Part shown: in pieces, positions 4,573-63,536 of the stretch
Numbering within the stretch: the first letter of the stretch is position 1
Layout: each line of letters opens with the position of its first letter
From: an uncultured Aquimarina sp.
Lineage (GTDB): Bacteria; Bacteroidota; Bacteroidia; Flavobacteriales; Flavobacteriaceae
Assembly: GCA_947498935.1 (NCBI GenBank)
Contig: CANMMM010000006.1
Location: 128,060 to 192,059 of the forward strand
Direction of reading: 5' to 3'
Length of the DNA stretch: 64,000 nt
The notes under the pieces: model-generated
What the model was told of the DNA's origin: nothing
Databases searched by the model: none
The model's input: the letters and a program-made list of their open reading frames with translations, nothing else
Translations under genes and position numbers: made by a program

Positions 4573-5772
4573 CTATAGGATTAATAGATTGATATCCCTG
4601 TAGGATAAATCAAACCAATCAGCCACGGATTTATTAGTTAGAATACCGTGATAAAAATACAATCCGTTTTTCAATCCTTTATCGAATCGCACAGTATTTT
4701 CGATACCACCTTCTTCTCCGATTTGTAGTAAATAGGGGGTAAAAATATTGCTAATTGATAACGAAGACGTTTTGGCATATTTAGAGGGGATATTAGGCAC
4801 GCAATAATGTACCACTCCATGTTTGATAAAGGTAGGGTGATCATGTGTAGTGACCTCACTGGTTTCGAAGCACCCTCCCATATCGATACTGACATCGATA
4901 ATAATAGCTCCAGTTTTCATACGTTCTACCATGGTTTCAGACACAATAATTGGCGAACGATTTTTTCCTCTTACTGCGCCAATCACTACATCACATCTTC
5001 TCAATGCTTTTAATAGATTTTTGGGCTGTATAGTAGAGGTGTATAAAGGCCTTCCTACATTGGTTTGCAAACAGCGTAGTTTGGTAATAGAATTATCAAA
5101 CACTTTTACATTAGCACCTAGGCCAATTGCAGATCGAGCAGCAAACTCGCCTACAGTACCAGCACCTACGATTACTACTTCTGCGGGTGGCACGCCACTA
5201 ATGTTTCCGAGCATGAGTCCAGATCCTATGGTGGTGTTGCTCATCAATTCAGAGGCGATCAGTACTGCAGCTGTTCCTGCTATTTCACTCAGAGCCCTTA
5301 CAGCTGGGTATGCACCATCTACATCTCTAATAAATTCGAAACCAAGAGCAGTAATTCTTTTTTTAGCCAATTCCTGAAAAAAGTCTTTGGACTGTGTTTT
5401 TAGTTGTAGAGCAGAGATCAATACAGTTTGTGGATTGATATGTGCTAATTCTTCTAGCGATGGCGGTTCTACTTTTAGGATAATCGGACACCCAAATACT
5501 TTGGTACTATCGTTAGTTACTTCTGCACCAGCTTCGCTATATTCACGATCTGTAAAACTAGCTCCTAATCCTGCATTGGCCTCGATCATTACTCGGTGTC
5601 CATGTGCTGTGAGTGCAGCTACTGCATCGGGTGTAAGACATACGCGTTTTTCTTGATAACTAGTTTCTTTGGGGATCCCTATAAATAGTTTTCCTTTTTG
5701 TCGTGTAACTTCTATCATTTCCTCCTGTGGTAGGAGTTGCTCTTTGGTAAAAGGAGAAGATGGTTGATTCAT
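4573..5772 (-). CDS. ald: Alanine dehydrogenase family NAD-dependent dehydrogenase
   Basis: 399 aa. IGIPKETSYQEKRVCLTPDAV, Rossmann motif VVIVGAGTVGEFAA, and a C-terminal VHYCVPNIPS typical of the AlaDH/PNT family. Confidence 0.75.
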   Translation of the reverse strand: MNQPSSPFTKEQLLPQEEMIEVTRQKGKLFIGIPKETSYQEKRVCLTPDAVAALTAHGHRVMIEANAGLGASFTDREYSEAGAEVTNDSTKVFGCPIILKVEPPSLEELAHINPQTVLISALQLKTQSKDFFQELAKKRITALGFEFIRDVDGAYPAVRALSEIAGTAAVLIASELMSNTTIGSGLMLGNISGVPPAEVVIVGAGTVGEFAARSAIGLGANVKVFDNSITKLRCLQTNVGRPLYTSTIQPKNLLKALRRCDVVIGAVRGKNRSPIIVSETMVERMKTGAIIIDVSIDMGGCFETSEVTTHDHPTFIKHGVVHYCVPNIPSKYAKTSSLSISNIFTPYLLQIGEEGGIENTVRFDKGLKNGLYFYHGILTNKSVADWFDLSYRDINLLIL

Positions 5773-57447: not shown

Positions 57448-57792
57448 CTATAAATCAATAAGGTATTTTATTCTAAAATAGCATTCTTTAGCTAATGGTT
57501 CTAACGATTCTCCATTGGGTGTAATAGTATAATCAAGTGATCTGTTCATAAAAGAAGCATATGTTTCTTCCAAATAATGATTTGTTTTTTCTTTTGGTAT
57601 ATGCATAAGCTTATAGATAATTTCCAAAATTGCAAGATGATGCATACTTAGTCCATCTAACCCTATACTTTCTAATCCGTACAATAATTGACTATGTTTA
57701 AGATCTTGTACTATTAGATCAATGATTATTTGTTCATTTTCCATAAAACTTTCAAATTTTATTTCTGAAATCCACCTTTCAAATTGTGACAC
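57448..57792 (-). CDS. Hypothetical protein at the left edge of the AT-rich island, divergent from the HTH-methyltransferase operon
   Basis: 114-aa ORF with an ATG start. No motif recognised. Its composition matches the island rather than the flank. Confidence 0.45.
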   Translation of the reverse strand: MSQFERWISEIKFESFMENEQIIIDLIVQDLKHSQLLYGLESIGLDGLSMHHLAILEIIYKLMHIPKEKTNHYLEETYASFMNRSLDYTITPNGESLEPLAKECYFRIKYLIDL

Positions 57793-57806: not shown

Positions 57807-57874
57807 TTCCGATTATCAGAACAAATATACCGAAATAAAGACAAAATAAAAACTAATTATTCAGAAAATCGGAA
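57807..57874. promoter_or_regulatory. Inverted repeat in the divergent promoter region (candidate operator for the small HTH protein)
   Basis: ttccgattatcagaa (57807-57821) and ttcagaaaatcggaa (57860-57874) are reverse complements at 13 of 15 positions. A third related ctgattat lies at 57883-57890. Confidence 0.4.
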
Positions 57875-57920: not shown

Positions 57921-58139
57921 ATGACTGATTTAGGTCTATATCTTTCTAGAAAATCTGTCAACAGATCTGATGTTTCTCGAAAAACAGGTATTAGTAAAAC
58001 CCGTCTTAGCGAATTGGCAAATAACAAGAAAACCAAATTAAGAGCAGATGAATTATATTTAATAGCACTTGCTATTGATGTTGATCCTTGTGAAATATTT
58101 GAAGAAGTTTGTAAAGAATTAAAACTTGTCGAGAAATAA
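57921..58139 (+). CDS. Small XRE-family HTH protein (R-M controller-protein-like position)
   Basis: 72 aa. SRKSVNRSDVSRKTGISKTRLSELANNKKTKLRADELYLIALAI fits the HTH_3 pattern. The stop is 2 nt before the methyltransferase ATG. Confidence 0.8.
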   Translation: MTDLGLYLSRKSVNRSDVSRKTGISKTRLSELANNKKTKLRADELYLIALAIDVDPCEIFEEVCKELKLVEK

Positions 58140-58141
58140 CT

Positions 58142-59257
58142 ATGGATATTTTAATTGAAGACAAATTATCATTGCATACGAATTTAAATAATGTTTCCAA
58201 TACTCCTCTAGGGTGCGATATTTTTAGTGGAGCAGGAGGGATGAGTCTTGGTGCAGAAATGGCGGGAATAAATATTTCTTTTGCTGTAGAAAATGACAAA
58301 TATGCTGCGGATACTTTTATTAAGAATCATAGCTCGTCAAAAGTTATTGTAGAAGATATAAGAAATGTTAAGCCTACAGAATTAATTTCTAAAAACCCTT
58401 TTGTACTATTCGGAGGACCGCCTTGTCAAGGCTTTTCGTTATCAAACACAGTTACTAGAAATTCTAAAAATGAAAAAAATAGTTTGTTTGAGGAATTTTT
58501 AAGATTTATCGAAGAGCTTGAACCACAATGGTGTGTTTTCGAAAATGTTGAAGGTTTTAGAAGTTTTCAAAAAGGTAAAGTTGTAAAAATTTTAAAAAAA
58601 CGATTAGAAGATTTAGGATATACTGTGAATTTTGATGTTTTAATAGCATCTGATTATGGAGTTCCTCAAGACAGGAAACGTTTTTTTATGATTGGAAATA
58701 AAAATGGAATAAAATTTAAATTTCCTCAGCCATTAACTAATAAATTCACAGTAGCAGATGCAATTTCAGATTTACCAAATTTACAGAATGGTGATTTTAT
58801 TGAATCTCTACCTTATAATGGTTTGGCTAATAACGAATTTGCTAATACTATGAGAGCAAAATCAAACTTCTCTATGCAGAATTATGTTTCTAGAAATAGA
58901 GATTACGTATTGGAGAGATATAGGCATATAGGACAAGGAGAAAACTGGAAAGCTATACCAGATGAATTAATGGCAAATTATGCTAACAAAAACAATTGTC
59001 ATTCAGGAATATATAAGCGCTTAAACTCTGAAAAACCATCGGTAGTTATTTCTAATTACAGAAAAAATATGTTGATACACCCTTTTGAAAACAGAGGTTT
59101 ATCAGTTAGAGAAGCTGCAAGATTACAAAGTTTTCCTGATGATTTTATTTTTCAAGGTACATTAATGTATATGCAACAACAAATAGGTAACGCTGTTCCT
59201 CCTTTATTAGCTAAAGCACTATTTGACCAAATTAATGAAATGACATATAATGGCTAA
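58142..59257 (+). CDS. DNA (cytosine-5)-methyltransferase
   Basis: All canonical m5C motifs in order: I DIFSGAGGMSLG, IV GGPPCQGFS, VI FENVEGF, VIII QDRKRFF, IX RLQSFPDDF, X GNAVPP. Confidence 0.95.
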   Translation: MDILIEDKLSLHTNLNNVSNTPLGCDIFSGAGGMSLGAEMAGINISFAVENDKYAADTFIKNHSSSKVIVEDIRNVKPTELISKNPFVLFGGPPCQGFSLSNTVTRNSKNEKNSLFEEFLRFIEELEPQWCVFENVEGFRSFQKGKVVKILKKRLEDLGYTVNFDVLIASDYGVPQDRKRFFMIGNKNGIKFKFPQPLTNKFTVADAISDLPNLQNGDFIESLPYNGLANNEFANTMRAKSNFSMQNYVSRNRDYVLERYRHIGQGENWKAIPDELMANYANKNNCHSGIYKRLNSEKPSVVISNYRKNMLIHPFENRGLSVREAARLQSFPDDFIFQGTLMYMQQQIGNAVPPLLAKALFDQINEMTYNG

Positions 59258-61379
59258 TAACAGAAAAGATTCTATAACGTTTAATTTTGATGTCAGCGCA
59301 TATAGGTTACTAGGTAGAGAACTTATTACAGATAGAATAACTGCTTTATTTGAGTTAGTTAAAAATGCTTATGATGCAAATGCTGAAAATGTTTCAGTTG
59401 AATTCCAAAATATTAATCCATTAAGTACCGATTCCAAAATAATTATTAAAGATGATGGTATTGGAATGCAATTTTCTGATATTAAAAATAAATGGATGGT
59501 AATTGGTACAAGTAGTAAAAGAAGAGAGCGACTTTCTCCACCACCACATAGAAGAAAAGTGTCGGGAAAAAAAGGTGTTGGCAGGTTTGCAGTTGATAAA
59601 TTAGGAGAAAAATTAATATTAAAAACTAAAAAAAAGGAAGACAAACAATTATTATGTTTGGAAACTGATTGGTCACATTATTCTGGATTAGAGAATTCTC
59701 AATTTAAATTAAACTTTGAAGATGAAAAACCTTTTTTTACAGATGTTGAAAATAGTTATTGGTATGAAGATTCACTTAAAAATAATCAAGGAACAATACT
59801 AGAAATTTCTTTGGTAAGTGAGATATGGACAAAAGATGATATAAATAGGGCATACAAAGAATTATCTAAATTAGTATCTCCAAATACAGATATTAAAAAA
59901 ACATATCCATTTAATATTACTATTAAAGCCCCTTATGAAGGGTTTGAAAATAAAATTGTAAAGACACAATTAATAGATTTTGCTACAGAGAAAATTCAAT
60001 TATCATATAATATTGATAAAGAGACACAAGAAATATTACAGTATAACAAAATTGAAAAGTACTTGTCTATAAAAAATGTTCCGAAAAGACCTTGTGGTTT
60101 ACTTAAATTAAACATTTATTATTTTAACGAGGAAGACAAAGCTAGATATAGAAAACATTTTGGAACAACATTAGATGGTATAAAAATTTATAGAGATGGC
60201 ATTATTACAACACCATTTGCCGAATATGTTTCAGATAGAAATAAGAAAAAAGATATATTAGGAATTGATAAGAGAAGGTGGTCTGGTTTTTTCGATAGGC
60301 TCTCTAATAGGGATTTGTTAGGTTACGTTGAAATTACAGATGAAAATAATCCGAATATTATAGAATCAACTAATAGACAGGGTTTTGTAGATAATGAGGC
60401 TTGGGGGGAATTACATTCTTTTGTTATAGAGCAAATTAGTCAATTAGAACAATATTTGAGTAATTTAAAAAAGACTCAGAGAAAAGCAACTAAATCAAAT
60501 TTAGGAGGAACTAACAAAGATTTAAAAGAACTAAAGAAAGATATTGCTTTAATAAAAAAAGATGCGTCTCCTGTAGTCAAAGAAAAGCTAAAGAATATTG
60601 AAGCTAACTTAGGGAAAATACAAGGTAGTGTAAATAAAAGTATTAAGGAGTATGCTAAATTAGAGAAGGAAACCAAACAAAAAGAGAACCTCTTTTTTAG
60701 CCTTGTTTCTCTTCAAACTTATGCTGCTATGTTCTCTCATATGACAAAGCATACTATAGGTCATATTTTAACAAGTGCGGAATATTTTAATAATAATTAC
60801 CCTAATCCAAAATTAGAAAATAGGTTTATTAAAATATCTAAGAATATTTATAATGAAATGCTTAAACTCAGAAAAGGTGTAGATTTTATGCTTAAATACG
60901 CAAAGTCAGATACTGAGTTTGAAGAAATTAATTTAAAAGACCTTGTAACTAATCTATTTAATGATATCTATTATGATAGGTTTTTAAAAGAAAATATAAA
61001 TACAGAAATAGCAATTAATGAAGAACTAATTTTAAATTATAATAGAAAATCTATTGAAGATATTTTTGATAATTTAATTTCAAATTCTATAAAAGCATTA
61101 AAAGGAATTGATAATAAACACATTAAATGTAGTAGTATAACAACTAAGAATGATTTAACAATTTTATTCTCTGATAATGGAATAGGTATTAAAGAGGAAG
61201 ATAGATTTAGGATTTTCGACATTTTCTTTACTAAAACATCTGAAGATGGAGGAGCTGGAATGGGACTTTATATGGTTAAAACTAGAGTAGAAGCAATGCA
61301 AGGAAATATTGAGGTAGTTGAAAATGAGTTCAAACCTAATGGAGCTACTTTAAAAATCACATTACCATTTAAAAAATAA
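59250..61379 (+). CDS. Dual-GHKL protein: N-terminal MORC/MutL-like ATPase module, a middle region, a coiled coil, and a histidine kinase (DHp plus HATPase_c)
   Basis: N-terminal Bergerat motifs: ELVKNAYDA (res 35-43), DDGIGM (68-73), GKKGVGRFA (106-114). A K/E-rich coiled coil spans about 400-480. H-box-like FSHMTKHTIGH (495-505). HK boxes: N DNLISNSIKA (607-616), G1 DNGIGI (642-647), F FDIFF, G2 GGAGMGL (667-673). The start overlaps the MTase stop by 8 nt. Confidence 0.8.
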   Translation: MANNRKDSITFNFDVSAYRLLGRELITDRITALFELVKNAYDANAENVSVEFQNINPLSTDSKIIIKDDGIGMQFSDIKNKWMVIGTSSKRRERLSPPPHRRKVSGKKGVGRFAVDKLGEKLILKTKKKEDKQLLCLETDWSHYSGLENSQFKLNFEDEKPFFTDVENSYWYEDSLKNNQGTILEISLVSEIWTKDDINRAYKELSKLVSPNTDIKKTYPFNITIKAPYEGFENKIVKTQLIDFATEKIQLSYNIDKETQEILQYNKIEKYLSIKNVPKRPCGLLKLNIYYFNEEDKARYRKHFGTTLDGIKIYRDGIITTPFAEYVSDRNKKKDILGIDKRRWSGFFDRLSNRDLLGYVEITDENNPNIIESTNRQGFVDNEAWGELHSFVIEQISQLEQYLSNLKKTQRKATKSNLGGTNKDLKELKKDIALIKKDASPVVKEKLKNIEANLGKIQGSVNKSIKEYAKLEKETKQKENLFFSLVSLQTYAAMFSHMTKHTIGHILTSAEYFNNNYPNPKLENRFIKISKNIYNEMLKLRKGVDFMLKYAKSDTEFEEINLKDLVTNLFNDIYYDRFLKENINTEIAINEELILNYNRKSIEDIFDNLISNSIKALKGIDNKHIKCSSITTKNDLTILFSDNGIGIKEEDRFRIFDIFFTKTSEDGGAGMGLYMVKTRVEAMQGNIEVVENEFKPNGATLKITLPFKK

Positions 61380-61385
61380 TAAATT

Positions 61386-61982
61386 ATGACTGTAACTTTT
61401 GTAATTATAGATGATAATGAAGAAATAAGGGAACACGCTTTATTATTTACTCTTGAAGATAAATACCAAAATATCATTTTTTTTTCCAATCCAAGTGAAG
61501 GGTTACAATACATAAAAGGTAATTTAGATATAAATTTAATAGTCTTATTAGACATCGAATTTTCTGATAATGACAAAAAGAATGGACATATACTTCTTGA
61601 AGAAATCTATAACGCATCTGCTTTAATACCTGTTATTTTATGGAGCGGTATAAATGAAACTAAAGAAGAGTTCAGTGATTTTATTAATAATCAGGCTTTT
61701 GGTTTTTTGAGCAAAACTTCTACCATAAAAGAATCAATGGTAATAATTGATAAAGCATATAATCACTTAAAAAATAGTTTAGATAATACGATTGAAGATT
61801 GGATTATTAGTAATGAAACAGACAAAGAAAAACCTATTTATTTAACTGCTGATGGCGAAACTTATTCTTTAAATGATATTCTAAAAGAAATTAGACTACA
61901 AACGCCCATTGGTAAAGAGTTTTCATCAAAACTAAACGCATTGACCATAGATTTATTATTACGTAAAAAAGAGAATTTATAA
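61386..61982 (+). CDS. CheY-like receiver (REC) domain protein with an ~85-aa uncharacterised C-terminal extension
   Basis: The acidic pair D9-D10 (IIDDNE), D56 (VLLDIEF), S87 (ILWSG) and K110 (FLSKT) fall at the CheY D12/D13, D57, T87 and K109 spacing. No DNA-binding output domain recognised. Confidence 0.75.
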   Translation: MTVTFVIIDDNEEIREHALLFTLEDKYQNIIFFSNPSEGLQYIKGNLDINLIVLLDIEFSDNDKKNGHILLEEIYNASALIPVILWSGINETKEEFSDFINNQAFGFLSKTSTIKESMVIIDKAYNHLKNSLDNTIEDWIISNETDKEKPIYLTADGETYSLNDILKEIRLQTPIGKEFSSKLNALTIDLLLRKKENL

Positions 61983-62584
61983 TGGTTGATGTTATTGGGT
62001 TATTTGATAATGAAGATGATTCTTTAGGGCTTTTTTTTCATCTTTGCTATGAAGATTTAATAAGCTATTTAGAAAATAATCCTATAAATATATCTTATTT
62101 TAATAGCCGTAGGCTTAATGAAATTTCTATCTCATTAATAACTGATTCGTTAGGTAAATTTATAACTTTAGCATATTCTCACGGTAGTGAAACAGAATTA
62201 TTAAGAGAAAATATTCCATACATTTCTACAGAAGTTAATATCGATAAATTTTCTGATTCTTTTTTTTATACCTGCTCTTGTCATACTGGAAAAGTTTTAG
62301 GAGAAAAATTAATAAATAATGGAGCCTTAAACTATATTGGTTATCGAGATAAATTTAAAGTTTGGGGATTCAATATGAATCCCTACATTGATTGTGCTAA
62401 TTATGGAATTAAACTTTTCTTCGAAAACCATTGCACAAATGATATTATTACTTTAATGAAGGAAAAGTATACTGAACATATCGATAATTACGAAAATGAT
62501 ATTTTTGGTGCAGCTATGTTGGTTTCAAATAGAAATAGCCTTGTTAGTTTTGGAAATAACATTTCAATTAACGATTTAAGTTGA
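61982..62584 (+). CDS. Hypothetical 200-aa protein with a candidate caspase/CHAT-like (clan CD) His-Cys dyad
   Basis: The ATG overlaps the upstream TAA (TAATG). A hydrophobic strand then H-G (FITLAYSHGSE, H67) and a hydrophobic strand then C-x-x-G (FFYTCSCHTG, C100) lie 33 residues apart. This is the order and context seen in caspase/legumain/CHAT folds. The CDS call is solid; the fold assignment is motif-level inference only. Confidence 0.55.
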   Translation: MVDVIGLFDNEDDSLGLFFHLCYEDLISYLENNPINISYFNSRRLNEISISLITDSLGKFITLAYSHGSETELLRENIPYISTEVNIDKFSDSFFYTCSCHTGKVLGEKLINNGALNYIGYRDKFKVWGFNMNPYIDCANYGIKLFFENHCTNDIITLMKEKYTEHIDNYENDIFGAAMLVSNRNSLVSFGNNISINDLS

Positions 62585-63115
62585 AATTTTAAAAAAAAAG
62601 ACTTTGTAAAATCAGAGTTTAAAAACTTCAATGCTGAAAGAGTTACTAGATTTAGCATCTTCATCATCGGAATATCCAGCAGCAGTAAAGTATTGTTTAA
62701 AAAGTTCAGGGTATGATTGGGGCAGATAATATTGTACAACGAGCTGCTTAAGTTCTTGTATAATTATGTAAAATAGAGCCCGCGTTTTTTACCCAGATGA
62801 AGCGTTTGCAAAATGGCTTCAGAAAACTCTCGTGAAAACAATATAAAAGTAAGGTTTATAAGGCTAGTTTAAAATAATCTTACTACAATATAGCGACTGC
62901 GGCGTACATTTGGGAAATTTTATGCTATTGCGAAAACCTTCACGAGAATCACGTAAAAATTTTTATCACGTATATTTTATCGAATACGCGATTTATAAAC
63001 TACCTAGCAGAATATTTCAACAATGGAATTATGATGTGATGACCCGAGTAGCTACGATTACTAGGATATTTTACATAGTATTACATTATAACTACTAATG
63101 TGGCAGGCGTGTCGC

Positions 63116-63209
63116 AAAACGGCTTTGACATAATATCTGTCGATCGATATAATACGCTGGCGCGTACTTATATCTGATATTATATCAAATACGCGGTATC
63201 CGCCGTTTT
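63116..63209. other. Long imperfect nested hairpin (~94 nt) in the non-coding tail of the island
   Basis: Outer arms: aaaacggc+tttgacataatatc (63116-63137) pair with gatattatatcaaa (63176-63189) and gccgtttt (63202-63209), separated by a 12-nt bulge. Inner hairpin: gatataatacgc (63146-63157) pairs with gcgtacttatatc (63162-63174). Confidence 0.6.
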
Positions 63210-63370
63210 ACTTCAATAAACACATTTGTACTATAATTTATATTATGTAAAATAGAGTTATTCAGAACCTCCTTTTCTTTCTTATTTTATCCCACTGCAC
63301 AATAGTTACAAAAAATACTAGTTTAATTATTTTTTGTAAATTAGAATGCGATTCGTCGCAATCAGACATT

Positions 63371-63513
63371 GAAGTGATGTACTCTTATTTTATTTCTGCG
63401 ATAAATAAAGGATTTGTGACCAAATGAGTATTGTTTGTGCTATAGTAGCATTACAGCACTCAAAAACTACAACAGCCCGTTTTTATAGCTAAATAAAAAA
63501 AGTATAACACTTC
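63371..63513. repeat. MITE-like repeat, diverged complete copy at the right border of the island
   Basis: gaagtgatgtactcttattttatttctgcg...gatttgtgaccaaatgag...gcattacagcactcaaaaact...aaaaaaagtataacacttc. Confidence 0.75.
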
Positions 63514-63536
63514 ATTAATAACAACTACGCCCCATT

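Follow-up and report, generated by a model that had tools for sequence, protein, structure and literature searches.

A window of 64,000 nucleotides from an uncultured Aquimarina sp. (Bacteroidota; GenBank assembly GCA_947498935.1, contig CANMMM010000006.1, positions 128,060 to 192,059 of the forward strand) was analysed around a single open reading frame (ORF), located at exactly 59250..61379 and coding for a protein with two GHKL ATPase folds. With a probability estimated at about 0.6, the protein serves as sensor kinase in a two-component cassette of the Ambrosia type, mobile and linked to a methyltransferase, which would act in defence against phages or other mobile elements and would have a protease as its output. 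The cassette comprises five genes in the order XRE-type helix-turn-helix (HTH) protein, C5 cytosine DNA methyltransferase (Dcm), kinase, receiver (REC) protein of 198 aa (RR198, the response regulator, RR, of the cassette) and a protein of 200 aa (P200) predicted to adopt a caspase/CHAT fold.

As for the kinase itself, it combines two GHKL folds from different lineages in one soluble polypeptide. Two Pfam domains were found, both far above their gathering scores: residues 31-142 match HATPase_c_3 (E = 1.4e-25) and residues 600-708 match HATPase_c (PF02518; E = 1.8e-24), in agreement with a previous reading of this DNA (hereafter the sequence-only reading), which had placed both folds in this one frame. 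The motifs of the N-terminal Bergerat fold, namely E35-LVK-N39-AY-D42-A, D68-DGIGM and G106-KKG109-VG111-RFA (key residues E35, N39, D42, D68, G70, G72, G106, K108, G109 and G111), sit at the residues proposed by that reading, as do the N (N612), G1 (D642-N-G644-I-G646), F (F656/F659) and G2 (G668-AG670-MG672) boxes of the C-terminal catalytic (CA) domain, which are conserved among relatives. The motif residues of both folds and the candidate phospho-acceptor H497 are invariant in an alignment of 35 orthologues, and among 65 relatives displaying 24-59% identity each is either invariant or conserved to at least 90%; across these 65 relatives the residue next to the H-box His is usually a Glu, as in canonical H-boxes.

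The two folds are attributed to different lineages because the C-terminal 240 residues resemble the DHp+CA structures of HK853 and WalK (Foldseek, E about 1e-13 to 1e-14), and because a profile covering residues 1-400 and drawn from 14 diverse relatives retrieved the N-domains of MutL, PMS1, HtpG and Hsp90 from the PDB (E about 1e-7). No histidine kinase was matched in the PDB by the latter profile, while the CA domain does match PDB histidine kinases (E = 1e-10). The GHKL identity of the N-terminal region, checked by profile and by model, was thus upheld, together with its proposed position in the MutL/PMS1/HtpG/Hsp90 branch rather than in the histidine kinase branch. Set beside the MORC and paraMORC proteins, the N-terminal GHKL of the window has intact ATP-binding motifs and belongs to the MutL/Hsp90 branch.

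Concerning the remainder of the polypeptide, no PAS, GAF, TPR, HAMP or HisKA model was matched in the Pfam scan, and the highest 19-residue Kyte-Doolittle mean is 1.03, which speaks against a transmembrane helix; the apparent lack of a transmembrane, PAS, GAF or TPR sensor had been correctly anticipated. The N-terminal GHKL module fills the sensor position of a complete histidine kinase core, as also proposed, and this core shares with the classical HisKA kinases the DHp His and the N, G1, F and G2 boxes, although without a HisKA match. In the AlphaFold2 model (mean pLDDT 71), the GHKL alpha/beta fold (1-205) is followed by the beta-rich middle domain (about 220-380), by two helices of great length (383-438 and 441-516), by a DHp-like return helix (520-551) and finally by the CA domain. 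These helices, together with the conserved H497 of the H-box FSHMTKHTIGH, bear out the coiled coil and H-box which had been read ahead of the CA domain. The middle domain has no sequence match in Pfam or in the PDB, and its fold was not resolved by a full-length Foldseek search, which was swamped by the kinase core. Its conserved columns in the alignments of relatives are GIKIY314-R-D316-G, D335, K341-R-R and R376. At residues 259-381, the modelled order of elements (three strands, helix, strand, helix; moderate pLDDT) is compatible with an S5 fold, and an S5-like transducer is therefore possible, as hinted by this secondary-structure order.

The link to phage defence comes from Ambrosia, a system of Pseudomonas aeruginosa composed of AbrR (XRE), AbrA (N6 methylase), AbrB (kinase/Hsp90-like ATPase), AbrC (REC) and AbrD (type IV HNH), which was validated as a phage defence and whose genes are induced on infection (10.1101/2025.09.30.679545). 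In Table S1 of that preprint, AbrB is a protein of 747 aa with HATPase_c, HATPase_c_3 and HATPase_c_5 domains, its first 399 residues being given. These 399 residues match the window kinase over residues 21-381 with 28% identity (BLASTP, E = 6e-32), and its residues 7-707 align with a further protein, P0254, that has 48% identity to AbrB. Because of this N-terminal match and of the full-length colinearity of P0254, the window kinase is an AbrB homologue. Both kinases have the dual-GHKL architecture (747 aa for AbrB, 709 aa for the window kinase), and the window displays the same operon logic, with XRE, methyltransferase, kinase, REC and last gene. According to the preprint (10.1101/2025.09.30.679545), mutating conserved residues in any predicted domain ends Ambrosia defence; AbrB N40A and AbrC D60A are among the mutants, the loss of protection being explicit for D60A. 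AbrB N40, the counterpart of N39 here, lies in ELVKN40AYDADA and is the Asn that binds Mg in the N-terminal GHKL. In effect, the mutation of ATPase residues that had been suggested for the window kinase has been performed on this homologue.

At the level of the whole cassette, full-length kinase homologues are found by the hundreds in Bacteroidota, with identities of 56-90%, the closest (90%) being that of Tenacibaculum maritimum. A scan of genome loci, with one genome per species, provided 20 full-length loci spanning Flavobacteriia, Sphingobacteriia, Bacteroidia, Cytophagia and Chitinophagia. All 20, down to 43% kinase identity, have Dcm, kinase, RR and P200 in this order, with short or overlapping junctions throughout, and the order is also kept in every informative metagenome locus. 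In 19 of these genome loci the kinase is immediately preceded by Dcm, the exception being locus L020 (see below). In the window, the Dcm stop overlaps the kinase start by 8 nt and the P200 start overlaps the RR198 stop (TAATG), RR198 and P200 being translationally coupled. Such tight or overlapping junctions fit a single operon of five genes, and the RR198/P200 junction is in agreement with a complex of the two proteins. As for the HTH gene, it was seen upstream of the methylase in six genome loci (L002-L005, L007 and L008), in the metagenome locus L033 and in T. maritimum, and was not detected in the more distant genome loci. From its position, which is that of AbrR, it is a candidate controller, probably with a C-protein/AbrR role. 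The cassette is sometimes accompanied by an HNH_2 nuclease, in 5 of about 20 orthologous loci, or by Vsr, in 5 loci; most loci, including that of the window, have no nuclease gene beside the cassette.

Beyond the Bacteroidota, an exhaustive HMMER search gave 670 clusters (50% identity) at E <= 1e-30, most of them colinear over kinase residues about 7-708, and HATPase_c_3 and HATPase_c were both present in 65 of 65 sampled members. The dual-GHKL kinase is thus widespread, and the sequence-only reading, which knew of no description of such a fusion, was mistaken on this point. The architecture was catalogued in 2021, as "group 1" of PMC8011034, and the requirement of one member, AbrB, for phage defence was demonstrated in 2025 (10.1101/2025.09.30.679545). 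The 2021 paper (Bellieny-Rabelo, Pretorius and Moleleki, PMC8011034) reports HATPase_c_3 + HEF_HK + HATPase_c proteins (174 of 222 sequences), which are soluble, linked to a REC-like gene in 91.6% of cases and usually preceded by a C5 methylase, with Vsr and HNH_2 sporadically nearby; a descent from paraMORCs is proposed there. The window resembles this family by its soluble HATPase_c_3 + HATPase_c kinase, its adjacent REC gene and its C5 methylase. However, the window kinase does not match PF19191 (HEF_HK) even at E <= 10, and RR198 matches PF00072 only and not PF19192 (Response_reg_2). Since PF19191 was matched by only one of the 65 sampled superfamily members, the two Pfam models of that paper cover a narrow subset of a larger family. 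Two further differences are that the RR of the window passes the canonical PF00072 threshold (33.7 bits for a cut-off of 30.2), and that the Results and Discussion of PMC8011034 make no mention of a caspase-like gene.

Members of the superfamily were found in Proteobacteria, Deinococcus and Cyanobacteria, and on plasmids, Campylobacter accounting for 41 of the 72 plasmid hits. Their methylases are of various classes (C5, N6 and Eco57I-like), and the downstream REC-like protein varies in length. On a Deinococcus gobiensis plasmid, the locus consists of HTH, Eco57I-like N6 methyltransferase, kinase, a 215-aa REC-like protein and HNH, and its kinase aligns end to end with that of the window (27% identity, E = 3e-57). 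In the one Campylobacter plasmid examined, the 51-kb conjugative C. jejuni plasmid p15597A-2 (L026), a REC protein of 340 aa and a convergent dcm come after the kinase, beside vapD and a recombinase. In Roseomonas and Lysobacterales (L023/L024), distant dual-GHKL kinases of 813-826 aa come after an N6/N4 methylase and are followed by a protein of 576-602 aa with no Pfam match and a weak REC-like stretch near residue 150-200, which may be another, uncharacterised type of output.

The methyltransferase next to the kinase, a neighbour already noted in the sequence-only reading, matches PF00145 (E = 8e-72), TIGR00675 dcm (E = 3e-62) and the PADLOC model MTase_II (E = 5e-119). That the kinase is functionally tied to DNA methyltransferases throughout the superfamily is supported by their recurrence, as C5 here and as N6 in Deinococcus, Roseomonas and Pseudomonas. 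The sequence-only reading went one step further and suggested that the N-terminal GHKL and middle region may sense nucleic acid. In a strict analogue of a restriction-modification (R-M) system, these domains would bind DNA and report unmethylated sites, Dcm methylation of the host genome keeping the kinase off and incoming unmethylated DNA switching it on. This is unlikely. It is favoured by the invariable linkage of methylase and kinase and by the activity on DNA of the MutL- and MORC-type ATPases (Iyer et al. 2008, PMC2292703, the paper in which the paraMORCs found in R-M systems were defined). Moreover, the N-terminal fold is that of the ATP-dependent, paraMORC3-like BbrUII/HgiDII restriction enzymes (E = 4e-20), which have a MutL/Hsp90-type N-terminal GHKL beside a DNA methylase. 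However, the similarity to these enzymes ends with the GHKL fold, at residues 11-139, and their C-terminal nuclease gives way here to a coiled coil and a histidine kinase core. No kinase fusion appears in PMC2292703, where "histidine kinase" occurs twice, only to expand "GHKL", and neither "receiver" nor "two-component" is found.

Locus L020, from a metagenome-assembled genome of Chitinophagaceae, also bears on this interpretation. Between positions 4855 and 11803, it contains Dcm, a BbrUII/HgiDII-family GHKL restriction enzyme (729 bits for a cut-off of 550), kinase, RR, P200 and Vsr, in that order, the restriction enzyme separating Dcm from the kinase and Vsr coming after the cassette. The cassette is here lodged within a complete type II R-M system, with two GHKL-fronted proteins side by side, and this arrangement hints at the origin of the sensor module of the kinase. 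On the other side, no DNA-binding domain was identified in the kinase, and phages grown on cells with AbrA alone, thus methylated by AbrA, remain sensitive to Ambrosia and obtain no protection (10.1101/2025.09.30.679545), a result which argues against a simple sensing of unmethylated DNA by that relative. Methylase classes also differ across the superfamily (C5, N6, Eco57I-like), and any readout could therefore not be tied to one chemistry or sequence.

The mobility of the cassette is apparent from its composition and surroundings. It lies in a low-GC island, between about 57.3 and 63 kb of the window, where GC is 26-30%, the flanks having about 40%. The five genes recur in T. maritimum between RmuC/CSD/TetR/RadC on one side and Dus/MFS on the other; as these flanking genes are unrelated to those of the window, the cassette moves as a unit. 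At the island borders, no tRNA, no Rfam family and no convincing flanking direct repeats were found. Together with the presence of the cassette on conjugative plasmids, and with a C-protein-like HTH ahead of the methylase, an arrangement shared with addictive type II R-M systems, this mobile island could also be explained by a selfish addiction module. Loss of the island would then be followed by a decay of methylation, upon which the kinase, RR and protease, being long-lived, would kill or arrest the cured cell, thereby stabilising the island, with defence being secondary or absent. This is very improbable: such a module requires the sensing of the methylation state, and the validated relative is an infection-induced defence without host toxicity (10.1101/2025.09.30.679545).

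Turning to the output of the cassette, the REC domain of RR198 covers residues 1-120, with D9, D10, the phospho-acceptor D56, S87 and K110 identified in an alignment of 18 orthologues, and is followed by a C-terminal domain of about 80 aa (residues 121-198). The latter gave no match in Pfam, in the PDB by profile, or in PHROGs, and a search of 5.8 billion proteins returned fragments of the same gene alone and none outside the cassette. In the alignment, this region can be read as two helices on either side of a turn with a conserved Gly; RR198 matches none of the known DNA-binding models, and no winged helix-turn-helix (wHTH) was recognised.

P200 was modelled with high scores (AlphaFold2, pLDDT 94, pTM 0.92), and its Foldseek neighbours are SAVED-CHAT (8tl0), caspases 4/6/8/11, CED-3, separase and the gingipains (E = 4e-5 to 1e-3, TMq 0.55-0.65, probability about 1.0). 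His67 (S-H67-G, codon 62180-62182) comes right after the strand at 60-65 and Cys100 (C100-x-T-G, codon 62279-62281) right after that at 93-98, which are the positions of the caspase dyad (His after beta3, Cys after beta4); neither residue varies among 18-21 orthologues, with identities as low as 27%. One orthologue is labelled "CHAT domain-containing" in UniRef. P200 is always directly downstream of the RR gene in genome loci, and a metagenome scan seeded with P200 found it only right after an RR198 homologue wherever upstream DNA was present. No P200-like domain was found inside the longer REC proteins of the Campylobacter, Enterobacter, Roseomonas and Deinococcus cassettes.

In terms of divergence, P200 evolves much faster than the genes around it, with 36-80% identity to the window copy where the kinase has 70-84%. 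Fast divergence is frequent among immune effectors. At least two sequence types of P200 were observed (70-80% vs. 36-45% identity to the window copy), kinase and methylase all being at 70-90%, which points to rapid evolution or module exchange. Among close relatives, the RR's C-terminal domain is 83-87% identical where P200 is 70-80%, and 63-69% identical where P200 is 36-40%; no such split into two classes was seen for REC, kinase and Dcm. This pattern suggests that a module boundary lies within the RR gene and that the RR C-terminal domain is the partner of P200.

A further explanation would be a purely regulatory two-component system that has no killing effector and tunes the expression of the methylase or of R-M genes (epigenetic control), P200 being a regulatory or maturation protease, which might cleave the HTH repressor or RR198, or a non-catalytic partner. 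A regulatory role was the speculation of the 2021 paper (PMC8011034), and transcription driven by the REC protein is part of the Ambrosia model; the helix, Gly turn, helix pattern of RR198 would suit it, and the HNH_2 nucleases of some loci could be its effectors. It is nevertheless quite improbable: at most loci, the window included, there is no nuclease to control, RR198 lacks a match to known DNA-binding models, the HTH gene was not detected in the more distant loci, and the P200 His/Cys pair is invariant in a fast-evolving protein.

Several observations weigh against the favoured reading of an Ambrosia-type defence cassette with a protease output. The methylase is a C5 enzyme in the window and an N6 enzyme in Ambrosia, RR198 has no detectable similarity to AbrC beyond REC, and the type IV HNH AbrD is without a counterpart in the window. 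The last gene of the cassette is instead P200, which has no HNH match in Pfam and is predicted, from its modelled structure and two invariant residues, to be a cysteine protease of the caspase/CHAT fold. P200 itself has no match to caspase or CHAT models (Peptidase_C14/CHAT) in Pfam, NCBIfam, PADLOC or PDB sequences, and its fold assignment therefore depends on the predicted model. The co-variation of the RR C-terminal domain with P200 is absent among distant loci, in a small sample, and is thus taken as suggestive. The C-terminal domain of RR198 could also bind DNA, the output then being transcriptional, as proposed for AbrC, which reportedly carries a wHTH (10.1101/2025.09.30.679545). Finally, PADLOC has no system-level model for the cassette: its matches are to the methylase and to the N-terminal GHKL (as REase_II) only, and none of its models matches the kinase-RR-P200 module. 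The hosts differ as well, being Bacteroidota for the window cassette vs. the Gammaproteobacteria, the only group in which Ambrosia has been reported (10.1101/2025.09.30.679545).

In an Ambrosia-type defence cassette, signalling could proceed as follows. In response to an infection-linked cue, the N-terminal GHKL module, possibly with the middle domain, would close or dimerise in an ATP-dependent manner, and the coiled coil (about 130 residues) would relay this change to the DHp, where His497 would be autophosphorylated by the C-terminal CA domain. The phosphoryl group would then pass to Asp56 of RR198, and phospho-RR198 would switch on P200, either directly, by means of its orphan C-terminal domain, or by inducing the operon. 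As a His67/Cys100 protease, P200 would cleave host or phage proteins and so halt the infection. Dcm might serve in self-marking or as part of an effector arm, as suggested for AbrA (10.1101/2025.09.30.679545), and the HTH protein might ensure a C-protein-like delay or repression. These steps are proposed on account of the known behaviour of MutL/Hsp90/MORC ATPases and of histidine kinases, and of the Ambrosia data. More tentatively, and with odds below even, an Ambrosia-like system may have swapped its nuclease for a minimal caspase-like protease in Bacteroidota, giving a chain from kinase to REC adaptor to caspase-fold executioner.

Among other known systems, Detocs is a defensive two-component system with a TPR sensor and REC-fused effectors (PNP and others) (10.1101/2023.01.24.525353). 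Compared by description, it has in common with the window cassette the use of phosphotransfer as an immune signal and not to regulate genes, a cytoplasmic kinase with a non-canonical N-terminal sensor and swappable effectors, but its sensor is a TPR and not a GHKL, it includes a buffer REC protein and it has no methylase. With respect to the clan CD caspase/CHAT proteins (SAVED-CHAT, PDB 8tl0), P200 is alike in predicted fold and in the position of its His/Cys pair; it differs in having just 200 aa, with no sensor or pro-domain, and in being apparently controlled by a REC protein and not via a cyclic nucleotide or a CRISPR complex. No papers came up in literature searches that joined paraMORC with histidine kinase and caspase, or cytosine methyltransferase with histidine kinase and anti-phage, and no description of this cassette is given by Kaur et al. 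2020 (PMC7159879). In the literature searched, a caspase-fold output is undescribed for this kinase family, and no description was found of a His-Asp phosphorelay controlling a caspase and coupled to a DNA methylase.

What appears new is a strictly conserved four-gene cassette running through five Bacteroidota classes, outside the reported range of Ambrosia, with an output module consisting of a REC protein with an orphan 80-aa domain and a 200-aa protein of predicted caspase/CHAT fold. This caspase-fold output is the part worth following. If P200 is a protease controlled by the phosphorelay, two-component signalling, DNA methylation and caspase-type proteolysis would be united in one immune operon, which would also offer a small tractable model for the gating of a histidine kinase by GHKL closure.

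Table 1. Features of the cassette in the 64,000-nt window (positions counted from its first nucleotide).
Feature	Position	Strand	Description or support
Conserved upstream motif GAACAAATAT	57819-57828	+	candidate promoter or operator
Conserved upstream motif AGAAAATCGGA	57865-57873	+	candidate promoter or operator
XRE/Cro-type HTH protein	57921..58139	+	72 aa; Pfam HTH_26 E 7e-10, HTH_3 E 3e-6
C5 cytosine DNA methyltransferase (Dcm)	58142..59257	+	371 aa; PF00145 E 8e-72
Dual-GHKL sensor histidine kinase, AbrB homologue	59250..61379	+	709 aa; HATPase_c_3 + HATPase_c
N-terminal GHKL (Bergerat) ATPase fold	59307..59864	+	residues about 20-205; Pfam, PDB profile matches
Beta-rich middle domain, possible transducer (S5-like)	59865..60389	+	residues about 206-380; AlphaFold2 element order
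Coiled-coil linker and DHp helical hairpin	60390..60902	+	residues about 381-480 and about 481-551; AlphaFold2 helices
Candidate phospho-acceptor His497 (codon)	60738-60740	+	H-box FS-H497-MTKHTIGH
Histidine kinase catalytic (CA) GHKL domain	60915..61376	+	residues about 556-709; PF02518
REC protein RR198	61386..61982	+	198 aa; PF00072 E 4.5e-8
P200, predicted minimal caspase/CHAT-fold cysteine protease	61982..62584	+	200 aa; AlphaFold2, Foldseek

The blocks GAACAAATAT and AGAAAATCGGA ahead of the HTH gene do not vary across six aligned orthologous regions (the window and five genomes), the rest of the spacer varying between the genomes that bear them. An imperfect inverted pair, TTCCGATT (57808) and AATCGGAA (57867), was also noted upstream of the HTH gene in the window. 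Further upstream, within the low-GC stretch, an ORF of 114 aa (57448-57792, - strand) stands in divergent orientation to the operon; neither Pfam, NCBIfam, PADLOC nor PHROG gave a match for it, none of the related loci has a counterpart, and it may be spurious or island cargo. On the other side of the cassette, about 0.95 kb without a convincing ORF (62585-63536) separates P200 from the next gene. This region, which could have a regulatory role, be a small repeat element or mark an end of the island, contains two exact 16-nt direct repeats, ATTATGTAAAATAGAG, at 62763 and 63242, with an inverted copy at 63067-63085.

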